Source: Escherichia phage T2
Length of the DNA stretch: 64,000 bases
Strand: one strand, 5' to 3'
Sequence record: NC_054931.1
Shown here: one piece after another, positions 5,803 to 63,987 of the stretch
How the letters are laid out: each line of letters starts with the position of its first letter
How positions within the stretch are numbered: position 1 is the stretch's first letter
Position numbers and translations under genes: made by a program
The notes under the pieces: model-generated
What the model was told of the DNA's origin: nothing
The model's input: the letters and a program-made list of their open reading frames with translations, nothing else
Databases searched by the model: none

Positions 5803-5815
5803 TATAATTTCCTCA

Positions 5816-6085
5816 TTAATTGAACAGTGGAGCGATACGTTTCAGAAGAGTAGCAGCACCTTTAGCGAATTTTACATCATGAAAAACAGTTTCTTCTTCT
5901 GTAACAATTCGAACTTTAATATTTTCACAATCCCAATTTTTGCGAACAATCTTCAAAAGCTGCAGTAAATCTTTACATTCAGCAATATCGATAACACATC
6001 CACGAGAATCTTCCATTATCGCACGATAACCATAAGCCATACCATAATCGTTGAAAGATTGCTCGATGATAATTAAGTTTTCCAT
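5816..6085 (-). CDS. hypothetical protein
   Basis: ORF; likely ATG at 6085 with SD ggag inside a conserved leader shared with the gene at 51677. Confidence 0.4.
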   Translation of the reverse strand: MENLIIIEQSFNDYGMAYGYRAIMEDSRGCVIDIAECKDLLQLLKIVRKNWDCENIKVRIVTEEETVFHDVKFAKGAATLLKRIAPLFN

Positions 6086-6183
6086 TTTATTCTCCAAGTT
6101 GTTTTCTGTATCAGTAGTTGATATTGATATAGTACCATAATCAACTACTGATGTATATAGTTTTATGAAAAAATTTTTAAACT

Positions 6184-6675
6184 TTATGCATAGCGAGCTT
6201 TGCTATAGTGTTTAATCCAGCTTTCAGGAATGACTTTGTATGTTCCTAAAAATACCGCGTTATATAACTTAACGCCATCTTCTACCCATTGATCAGTAAT
6301 GTATGCACACATAGCGCGAGTACGGTTAACAACCCCTTCCTCACCTTCAGTAAATTCAAACTCATAAGGAGCAACGAACTTAATGGCCTGACCGAGTTTC
6401 CACTTAAAGTCTACACCTACATGCGAAGTATCAATCGTTTCAATTCCTTTAGCGGGAACAGCTTTCAAAAACGCAGGCTCAAGAAATTTCCATCGAACAT
6501 AACCAAACTGAGGTTTAGACATTCCATCTTTAGGAATGATACGCACTTTTACTTCAGAATCTTCATCTTTAACACCATGTTTAAGCTGAATGCTTACAAC
6601 TTCAACCAATTTTCCTGCTGCTTTAGAACGGGATTTATCAGATACACGAGCAATTTCACCGATATTAATATTCAT
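6184..6675 (-). CDS. motB: MotB-like protein (by length and position)
   Basis: 163-aa ORF immediately before dexA in transcription order. Confidence 0.4.
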   Translation of the reverse strand: MNINIGEIARVSDKSRSKAAGKLVEVVSIQLKHGVKDEDSEVKVRIIPKDGMSKPQFGYVRWKFLEPAFLKAVPAKGIETIDTSHVGVDFKWKLGQAIKFVAPYEFEFTEGEEGVVNRTRAMCAYITDQWVEDGVKLYNAVFLGTYKVIPESWIKHYSKARYA

Positions 6676-17867: not shown

Positions 17868-18035
17868 TTTTACTCTTCTTTTTCTTTAGATTCCTCTTTT
17901 TTCTTTTTAGGAATCTGTTCAGGACCTTTATTTACTACAGCGCCTGACGTTGTTCCAGTAGAGATATTTTCAGGATTACCACCTGAATCTCCAGCGACCA
18001 TATCTTCTTTGATAAATTCTTTATATGTTTTCATA

Positions 18036-61437: not shown

Positions 61438-61818
61438 TCAATTAGAAAATAAATTTATCCAAGATTGTTCTTTAATTAAAAATGGCTCAGAATCATATGC
61501 CATTAAACTGTGGGTAATTAATCCTTTAAAAGGTCCATCAATAAATTCCATGGTAAAATATGGAATTTTATTCATTAGCCGTGCATTAGGAGCAGTACAC
61601 AAAACTCTGCATCCTTTGAATACGCCTTTTTGTAATTTGTATTGCTTAGGATAAAATTCGCTTAAAATGTTATTTTTTGCCAAAATTTCAAAATGATTCA
61701 CCAATTTATTTTTAATAGTTTTTGGCGAAAAATAAAGATATTCGAAAAGCTGAGTGTCTGTCATCATTGCATTCCGATTACGAAAAACTGTGGACGAGTA
61801 ATACCACCAATACAACAT
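61438..61818 (-). CDS. hypothetical protein
   Basis: 126-aa ORF. Confidence 0.35.
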
Positions 61819-62299
61819 TTAATATTACAGCAGCAGTGTACAGTGTCAATATGGACACTATAAATCTTATCCATATCAGGAGATTTGACAGGCTCATCAA
61901 TTATATACAAAATTCGCGAAAGCGATAAACCTCTGAACTTGCTTCCTTTATTACCAATAACTGCGCACAGAATCAGTAAATAAACGAAAACGTATATCAT
62001 CATTAGAATAACGCGAAAATTCCTTTTTGATGTTATTTGCAGAAATTTTAGCGTAAGCTGAAGTATTAGAAAGAACAATAACTGTTCCGCCATCATACAA
62101 CCAATTAGCAGCAAAGTTAGTCACAGCAATTGATTTACCAGATTGACGTCCACCATCTAGTCGAAGTGTGCAATACTGTTTAAGTAAGTCTTCAAATGGC
62201 GGGATATTCGTTTTTACAAATTTCTTCTACTCTAGCATCAGAATGGTGTGTAAAAGCATTCATCAGGGATAGATAAGGACCAGTTAAAAATGTTCTCAT
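61764..62299 (-). pseudogene. P-loop NTPase-like gene disrupted by two frameshifts
   Basis: three frame segments: MRTFLTGPYL..., ...LDGGRQSGKS... (Walker A), ...ILYIIDEP... (Walker B); span 3n+2; first break near a T5/A5 homopolymer. Confidence 0.4.
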
Positions 62300-62439
62300 T
62301 TCTTCTCTCTAAATTTGGGCCATTCCATGGCGCATGAATTGTCCATTTCTGTATTTACCCATTACCGCGCTTGGGCTCGACATTATTACAGGTTGGCGGG
62401 AATCCCTCACAGAATCATGAGGTCCAGGTTGTTCCCATG

Positions 62440-62913
62440 TTATTTGAACGATTTAACGTACTGAATAGAACCTTTACTATTCACAAAGGCAATTTTACCA
62501 TTTTTGTTATACATGGTAGCAGTACGTTGATAGCCATAAGTTTGTTTACCAGATTGATAACCAACTAATGCGAAATTATCTTCACCCATTTTATTCTGTT
62601 TAGCGCGAATGCGTTCATGACCATGTGCCATAAGAACCTTAGCATCACCAGTTGCAATGGATCGACGAGTTTTTTCATCTTCAACTGTATTAACAAAGTC
62701 GTCAAATGAATCAAATTTAGCATGAGATTTATTATACAGTTTTCCATCTACTGCATAATTATATCCCTGTACATCCATCTCAACTTCTGTACCATCATCC
62801 AATACAGCAGTGATTTTCTGACCTTTTTTAAATTTCAAAAGATCAGTAAAAGATTCAGCAATAATTTGAGAATTAATAGCTGCTTCAGTAATAAATTCTT
62901 GATAGGTTTTCAT
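62440..62913 (-). CDS. head internal protein (IP) with capsid-targeting sequence
   Basis: 157-aa ORF starting MKTYQEFITE followed by second I-A-E site; matches IP capsid-targeting-sequence consensus. Confidence 0.65.
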   Translation of the reverse strand: MKTYQEFITEAAINSQIIAESFTDLLKFKKGQKITAVLDDGTEVEMDVQGYNYAVDGKLYNKSHAKFDSFDDFVNTVEDEKTRRSIATGDAKVLMAHGHERIRAKQNKMGEDNFALVGYQSGKQTYGYQRTATMYNKNGKIAFVNSKGSIQYVKSFK

Positions 62914-62966
62914 GTGTTTCCTTTAAATATTTTAATTAGTAATTGTCTATTCAAGTAACTGTGAAT

Positions 62967-62996
62967 ATACTATCACAATTCCAAGAGAAAGTAGAC
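62967..62996 (-). promoter_or_regulatory. early-promoter-like element upstream of IP gene (variant -35 GTCTAC)
   Basis: gtagac 62991-62996 with -10-like tagtat 18 bp away. Confidence 0.35.
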
Positions 62997-63000
62997 AATT

Positions 63001-63987
<987 letters not shown>

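Follow-up and report, generated by a model that had tools for sequence, protein, structure and literature searches.

Several internal proteins of T4-type phages have a described target, and these are the systems closest to the gene analyzed here. Each of Ip1, Ip2 and Ip3 blocks a GmrSD type IV enzyme of its own, without cross-protection, and the leader is all that they have in common (Silas et al. 2025, PMC12373910). IPI inhibits the GmrSD of CT596, and IPIII is needed on ECOR17 and is active from the cytoplasm without its leader. A further leader-bearing internal protein, Bas37_0260, blocks McrBC (HIDEN-SEQ preprint 10.1101/2025.11.20.689424) and shows that internal proteins can hit type IV enzymes beyond GmrSD. 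The statement of the original prediction that some internal proteins are anti-restriction factors is therefore better founded than could be known from the sequence alone.

In IPIII ten N-terminal residues are enough for packaging, with residues 4 and 7 as determinants of targeting and residues 8 and 10 as determinants of processing (PMC9026906). The prohead protease gp21 cuts after L/I-X-E, and in GenBank X04567.1 residues -10 to -1 of T4 IpII and IpIII are annotated as removed. At the internal-protein loci promoter-plus-stem–loop elements with T4-early-type promoters and AT-rich stems have been described (PMC2839356), and according to Arbiol et al. T-even genomes carry no ip genes outside these loci (PMC2839356). 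The PeSL cassettes of T4-type phages likewise combine a promoter, a stem–loop and a Shine–Dalgarno sequence beside a variable nonessential ORF and offer homology for exchange.

We analyzed a window of 64,000 nucleotides, i.e., the whole stretch of Escherichia phage T2 DNA presented here (NC_054931.1), in which an internal-protein gene had been predicted. Our reading, to which we assign a probability of roughly 0.6, is that this gene codes for a packaged, gp21-cut and injected anti-restriction protein and that it is carried on a mobile cassette. The features discussed below are collected in Table 1.

Table 1. Features of the ip4 locus and two further features of the T2 window (positions in the window)
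Feature	Position	Strand	Basis or remark
Gene 61.1, 54-aa early ORF	17870..18034	minus	Opens MKTYKEFIKE (T4: MKTFKEFIKE)
vs.8 pseudogene, conserved flank of the cassette site	61767..62410	minus	T4 Vs.8 alignment in three frames
Downstream cassette joint, 29 nt, ip4 stop to vs.8 start	62411..62439	minus	
ip4 CDS, 157-aa precursor, stop codon included	62440..62913	minus	ORF list; ATG start
Codons 21–157, conserved body predicted to be folded, mixed alpha/beta, basic	62443..62853	minus	
Codons 11–20, variable linker with second candidate gp21 site I18-A19-E20, then S21	62854..62883	minus	Conservation and AlphaFold
Codons 1–10, MKTYQEFITE, capsid-targeting sequence ending in the gp21 motif I-T-E	62884..62913	minus	9/10 versus T4 IPII/IPIII
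e–ip4 intergenic regulatory element, 87 nt	62914..63000	minus	Near-identity to T4, PST and SH7 e-proximal ip upstream regions
Shine–Dalgarno sequence AAAGGAAA, strong, ahead of ip4	62917-62924		
Predicted T4-early-type promoter: GTCTAC; extended -10 TGATAGTAT	62991-62996; 62967-62975		Alignment with T4 ip upstream regions
Nested inverted repeats	63000-62992 with 62949-62941; 62980-62973 with 62964-62957		
Gene e (lysozyme), conserved upstream flank	63001..63495	minus	96% identity to T4 e
nudE–e fused frame	63001-63987 (junction near 63533-63537)	minus	1-nt T-run deletion

The ip4 gene and its leader

The ORF that had been claimed to open with MKTYQEFITE is an exact minus-strand ORF, stop codon included, and is preceded by a strong Shine–Dalgarno sequence. 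Its product opens MKTYQEFITEAAINSQ, with MKTYQEFITE as the first ten residues, and six T2/SV76 records match the 1.7-kb stretch around the gene at 100% identity. The assignment as an internal-protein gene was confirmed as well. In the T2 record MH751506.1 the gene is labeled ip4 (protein AYD82724.1), the Pfam profile DUF7412 (PF24183, 158 positions) matches residues 1–157 of the protein with an E value of 5.7e-96 and 319 bits at a curated cut-off of 27, and PHROG 3155 ("internal virion protein") matches with an E value of 6e-102 and 339 bits. Ip4 of phage K3 (Q38388) is 99% identical to T2 Ip4, and there is no difference of substance between the gene in the window and Ip4 of the T-even phages (Q38388 of K3, AYD82724.1 of T2), which show 99–100% identity, equal length and the same site beside gene e. 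The ORF is ip4, one of the three internal-protein genes of T2. It is thus a named and already known gene, whose leader and locus plasticity have been described since the 1990s; the original description is reportedly the one by Repoila et al. from 1994. As is typical of T-even internal proteins, Ip4 is small and basic: the mature form would have 15.5–16.5 kDa and a pI of 9.1–9.3 (about 9.2), and other internal proteins have pI values of 8.9–9.6.

The first ten residues were said to be the packaging and cleavage signal of the T-even internal proteins, and the comparison with T4 bears this out. IPII and IPIII of T4 (translated from NC_000866) open MKTYQEFIAE, from which Ip4 differs at position 9 only, a position that is not a determinant, and Y4, F7, I8 and E10 are all kept. 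Ip4 has therefore the expected residues at the targeting positions 4 and 7, and the processing positions 8 and 10 belong to a gp21 motif, I8-T9-E10, followed by alanine. Over the approximately 128,000 six-frame codon positions about 1e-7 leader matches are expected by chance, with (1/20)^9 per position, and the likeness of the Ip4 leader is therefore not a chance one. Within the Ip4 family the leader residues M1, K2, F7 and E10 are conserved to at least 90%.

The second candidate gp21 site further downstream is conserved too. E20 is retained at a level of at least 90% despite the variable residues 11–19, distant homologues have LNES at the position of the E20 site, and one of them (P0017) contains no other L/I-X-E site. 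In the better AlphaFold model of Ip4 (pLDDT 85.8, pTM 0.80) residues 10–20 score less than 50, compared with values mostly above 90 in the body; this fits a flexible, protease-accessible linker or propeptide at residues 10–20. A comparable situation probably exists in T4 IPI, for which we infer the distal I-T-E at residue 19 to be the cut site, akin to the candidate I-A-E20 of Ip4. IPI* comprises 76 of the 95 IPI residues.

We consider it very probable that Ip4 is packaged and processed. The protein would be made as a 157-aa precursor, and its leader would take it into the prohead scaffolding core. There gp21 would cut after Glu10 (I-T-E/A), with a probable second cut behind the conserved Glu20 (I-A-E/S). 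In the literature searched we found no virion proteomics for T2 Ip4 and no direct evidence of its presence in virions or of its processing.

Cassettes between gene e and vs.8

The ip4 gene lies between e and vs.8 in one of the two known hyperplastic ip loci, behind the shared early-promoter/stem–loop element. The spacer between e and ip4 in T2 is almost identical to the spacer between e and ipIII in T4, and the identity includes the leader codons up to GAATTTATT, where it ends. The arrangement is like that of the PeSL cassettes, with promoter, stem–loop and Shine–Dalgarno sequence beside a variable gene, but at ip4 the homology reaches into the coding sequence through the codons of the targeting sequence. 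The intergenic element, whose predicted early promoter sits inside nested inverted repeats, corresponds to the promoter-plus-stem–loop elements reported from the ip loci (PMC2839356) and folds with -9.4 kcal/mol (z -2.4). The promoter is presumably active; a scan with the sigma-70 consensus did not flag it. Two TATAAATA motifs are located upstream of gene e, and no terminator-like site was found between e and ip4 on the minus strand. The late promoters of e probably drive late transcription of ip4 too, presumably by read-through.

At the junction of nudE and e we observed a deletion of one nucleotide in a T run (CTCTTTTAA to CTCTTTAA), which abolishes the stop codon of nudE, so that the NudE frame runs on into the lysozyme e via a 13-aa linker. 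The deletion is present in 0 of 512 matching records, six T2 records and T4 included; the probable cause is an error in sequencing the homopolymer or a mutation private to the source.

About six architectures of the locus were found across the phages compared. The order is vs.8–denV–ipII–ipIII–e in T4, vs.8 (pseudogene)–ip4–e in T2, vs.8–ip4–ipIII–e in Yersinia phage PST, vs.8–ip4–105-aa leader-bearing gene–e in Shigella phage SH7, vs.8–ip4–N-terminally truncated leaderless ipIII–105-aa gene–e in Escherichia phage VEc74, vs.8–ip4–denV–e in Yersinia phage PYps55T, and e–ip4–ipII-like in Klebsiella phage PKO111. At the joint on the vs.8 side the homology between T2 and T4 restarts 3–5 nt past the stop codon of ip4 (T2) or of denV (T4). 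A locus content different from T4, without a recognizable denV, had been predicted for T2, and this is what we find: ipII, ipIII and denV are missing without remnants. A tblastn search for denV across the whole window (E ≤ 1e-3) gave nothing, and there is no trace of ipII or ipIII or of their remnants within the window. T2 is classically more sensitive to UV than T4, in keeping with its lack of denV.

We considered whether the stretch of small ORFs at 62125-62440 could hold a remnant of denV, ipII or ipIII and rejected this, the stretch being the frameshifted 5′ part of vs.8. Residues 1–72, 73–155 and 154–219 of T4 Vs.8 align to T2 in three frames, which corresponds to two frameshifts; the start codon is GTG in T2 versus ATG in T4, and the gene is annotated as fragments in the T2 GenBank record. 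In T4 vs.8 is intact, and in PST, SH7, VEc74 and PYps55T it is shorter but open.

From these arrangements we infer that homologous recombination between the shared elements, leader codons included, swaps or deletes the bodies of internal proteins. The ip4 gene would then be a mobile cassette, with the shared promoter, stem–loop, ribosome-binding and targeting element on one side and the joint past the stop codon on the other, and these shared flanks would let recombination exchange internal-protein bodies at the ip4 site. The T2 locus looks like that of PST with ipIII deleted between two leader repeats. Because ip4 itself is strictly conserved (see below), the locus varies by the presence or absence of cassettes and not by drift of the Ip4 sequence.

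Two of the related phages show further peculiarities. In VEc74 the copy of ipIII (1928-2428) is devoid of the targeting sequence and of the first approximately 35 residues, opens with MSGPIDRETAPIERY and adjoins ip4 and the 105-aa leader-bearing gene (PHROG 3966). It has the look of a scar left by recombination during the shuffling of cassettes, and its product would be unpackaged if expressed. In PYps55T denV (1829-2245) is found between ip4 and e, across the ip cassette from where it lies in T4 next to vs.8, and denV therefore behaves as a mobile cassette here.

The claim that the window holds a single IP-type ORF has to be qualified. It is correct insofar as there is no other canonical ip gene in the window; ip7 (MKTFKEFINE) and ip5 (MKTFKEFATKTTITE) are situated at the 57B locus just outside it (5805-6440 of the MH751506.1-derived sequence). 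One of the two 57B-locus genes in the T2-like phage Bas37 inhibits McrBC (10.1101/2025.11.20.689424). The claim does not hold for the leader as such, with which gene 61.1 also opens in a variant form. This gene sits outside both internal-protein loci, keeps the four leader determinants (Y/F4, F7, I8, E10) and is identical to the ip leader codons at 25 of its first 30 nt. Moreover, residues 2–38 of 61.1 show 43% identity (E 1e-8) to residues 57–93 of gp23, a part which spans the L-T-E/A maturation site of gp23, and homologues of 61.1 are labeled "major capsid domain-containing" in some databases. Judged from these sequence likenesses, 61.1 may be an unrecognized gp21 substrate, a packaged peptide or a decoy.

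Selection and fold of the Ip4 body

The five Tequatrovirus copies of ip4 that we compared differ at 20 codons, and all of these differences are synonymous (20 synonymous and 0 amino-acid changes; dN = 0, dS 0.04–0.17). Between T2 and Klebsiella phage PKO111 dN/dS is 0.14; for comparison, the values are 0.05–0.09 for the neighboring vs.7 and 0.14 for ipIII (T4 versus PST), so that within Tequatrovirus ipIII evolves faster than ip4 with its ratio of 0. Ip4 is found in 469 phage records, in 289 of them at a protein identity of at least 99%, compared with 261 records for IPIII and 198 for IPII, and it is still 69% identical in T4-like phages of Klebsiella and Salmonella. In five T2 populations no slippage mutants were observed at an A6 run inside ip4 (10.1101/2025.10.21.683753). 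The gene is functional and under strict purifying selection.

The body behind the leader had been described as divergent, and the body-only BLASTP agrees with this. Beyond the first approximately 13 residues no significant similarity was detected to IPI, IPII or IPIII of T4 or to Ip5 or Ip7 of T2 (best E 0.04, six-sequence database). The Ip4 family itself is compact, with 14 clusters at 90% identity and all members at least 61% identical. Against 1.84 billion representative proteins the Ip4 profile gave 7 matches; those inspected have phage-type leader-like N-termini (e.g., MNFEQFLNES) or are fragments, and one of the 7 is a protein of 1,879 aa with eight short matched stretches. Concerning two distant homologues, the genomic context of P0015 on a 2.8-kb contig was uninformative, and P0016 has no relative among cultured phages. 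NCBIfam and PADLOC contained nothing significant for Ip4, and Pfam returned DUF7412 only.

Structural comparisons gave a similar picture. Ip4 of K3 (Q38388) was the sole match of the predicted structure among viral models, and a fold search with the first Ip4 model for likeness to IPI*, Ip2 or Ip3 gave no match. The only PDB entry below an E value of 0.001 in the sequence search, a designed Kelch-like repeat protein, was treated as spurious, each matched stretch being insignificant. We also considered an enzymatic reading based on the conserved His64 and His99 and rejected it; since these histidines of the close relatives are lost in the distant homologues, we see no enzymatic signature in Ip4. 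By sequence or by fold the body of Ip4 is not like that of IPI*, Ip2 or Ip3, and a shared mechanism is thus not supported by such a likeness. Body likeness does not define the class of GmrSD inhibitors, however, because Ip1, Ip2 and Ip3 are unrelated to one another.

Possible targets of Ip4

Among the internal proteins with a known target, IPIII (Ip3) of T4, the inhibitor of the two-gene GmrSD of ECOR17, has much in common with Ip4. Both are encoded at the same site directly downstream of e, with a nearly identical upstream element and targeting sequences that agree in nine of ten residues, and IPIII is basic, nonessential and packaged. Its body of 183 aa, in contrast, is unrelated to that of Ip4, which would have about 137–147 aa in the mature form. 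IPI of T4 shares with Ip4 the small size, the basic character, the targeting-type leader and the location in a hyperplastic ip locus, and it is processed by gp21 and injected with the DNA; it differs by its locus (57B–tRNA), its unrelated body and its known target. Bas37_0260, from the ipI locus and hence a different one, combines a packaging signal at its N terminus with an otherwise unique body, as does Ip4.

According to our main reading the basic, folded Ip4 of 15.5–16.5 kDa would stay in the head together with the DNA and would be injected into the next host. There its role would most likely be the stoichiometric inhibition of a host nuclease which attacks DNA with glucosyl-hydroxymethylcytosine, and the target would be a type IV restriction enzyme outside those tested so far. 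Of the enzymes for hydroxymethylcytosine and its glucosylation, T2 encodes gp42, a-gt and ggt. In records of Klebsiella phages we count 135 for Ip4, 137 for gp42 (dCMP hydroxymethylase) and 136 for a-gt (alpha-glucosyltransferase); these totals, taken per record, would agree with an occurrence of Ip4 in phages whose DNA has glucosyl-hydroxymethylcytosine, the substrate of GmrSD enzymes, but are confounded by shared ancestry. Weighing these points, we hold the type IV anti-restriction role itself to be tentative, with somewhat less than an even chance of being correct. In heterologous expression ip4-10 did not reproducibly inhibit the active GmrSD variants (PMC12373910, Suppl. Fig. 9), and T2, though it carries ip4, is restricted by GmrSD-ECOR21 and GmrSD-ECOR17 (PMC12373910). 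Because of the restriction by GmrSD-ECOR17, Ip4 does not replace Ip3 functionally. The absence of any amino-acid change in Ip4 also counts against the main reading, unlike as it is to the rapid divergence often expected of proteins in an arms race. In the literature searched we found no paper assigning a target or a function to Ip4.

These negative tests and the restriction of T2 by two GmrSDs could also be accommodated if Ip4 were packaged and injected but acted on a target that is not a type IV enzyme, e.g., another defense system or a conserved host process. A conserved target is suggested by the conservation of Ip4 (dN = 0, and 69% identity across genera with different hosts), and the co-packaged ADP-ribosyltransferase Alt, with roles in host takeover and against Mokosh, demonstrates that such roles are possible for packaged proteins. 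On the other hand, Ip1, Ip2, Ip3 and Bas37_0260, i.e., all leader-bearing small internal proteins with a known target, inhibit type IV enzymes, no enzymatic motif is kept in Ip4, and the family databases offer no family beyond DUF7412; this explanation is the main rival of our reading, but we regard it as unlikely. More pointedly, Ip4 might be not a GmrSD inhibitor but an injected neutralizer of a conserved enterobacterial factor or of an undescribed defense, a speculation, rather doubtful in our view, to which the role of 61.1 as gp21 substrate, packaged peptide or decoy would be added as a lesser possibility. If it were true, Ip4 would be the commonest first-strike effector of the T-even phages, and one with a new fold.

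A mainly structural part in the head, as counterion of the DNA or in core assembly and without a specific host target, would agree with the basic pI, with the approximately 300 copies of internal proteins per head, with the more frequent polyheads made by IPIII-deficient T4 (PMC9026906), and with the strong conservation and the high number of records of Ip4 among the internal proteins of the e locus. But ip4 is missing from T4 and from many relatives, with unrelated bodies at the same site, and is therefore not a required structural part; its body is modeled as a confidently folded globular domain, unlike a histone-like tail; and IPIII, which was formerly deemed structural, turned out to be a GmrSD inhibitor. 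A structural role appears distinctly improbable to us. The state of the locus, finally, with two frameshifts and a changed start codon in the neighboring vs.8 and with denV, ipII and ipIII lost from T2, could raise the suspicion that ip4 is a decaying or nonexpressed remnant. This is effectively refuted by the intact frame, the strong Shine–Dalgarno sequence, the conserved promoter element, the exclusively synonymous changes among the five phages, the 289 nearly identical records and the missing slippage mutants at the A6 run.

Host immunity meets the injected internal proteins before any other phage molecule, and wherever their target is known it is a type IV enzyme that they disarm. Among the sequenced T4-like phages, the classic phage T2 included, no internal protein of the e locus is as widespread as Ip4. 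Its target, once found, would probably reveal a further variant of restriction or defense and help to explain how therapeutic T-even phages differ in host range.
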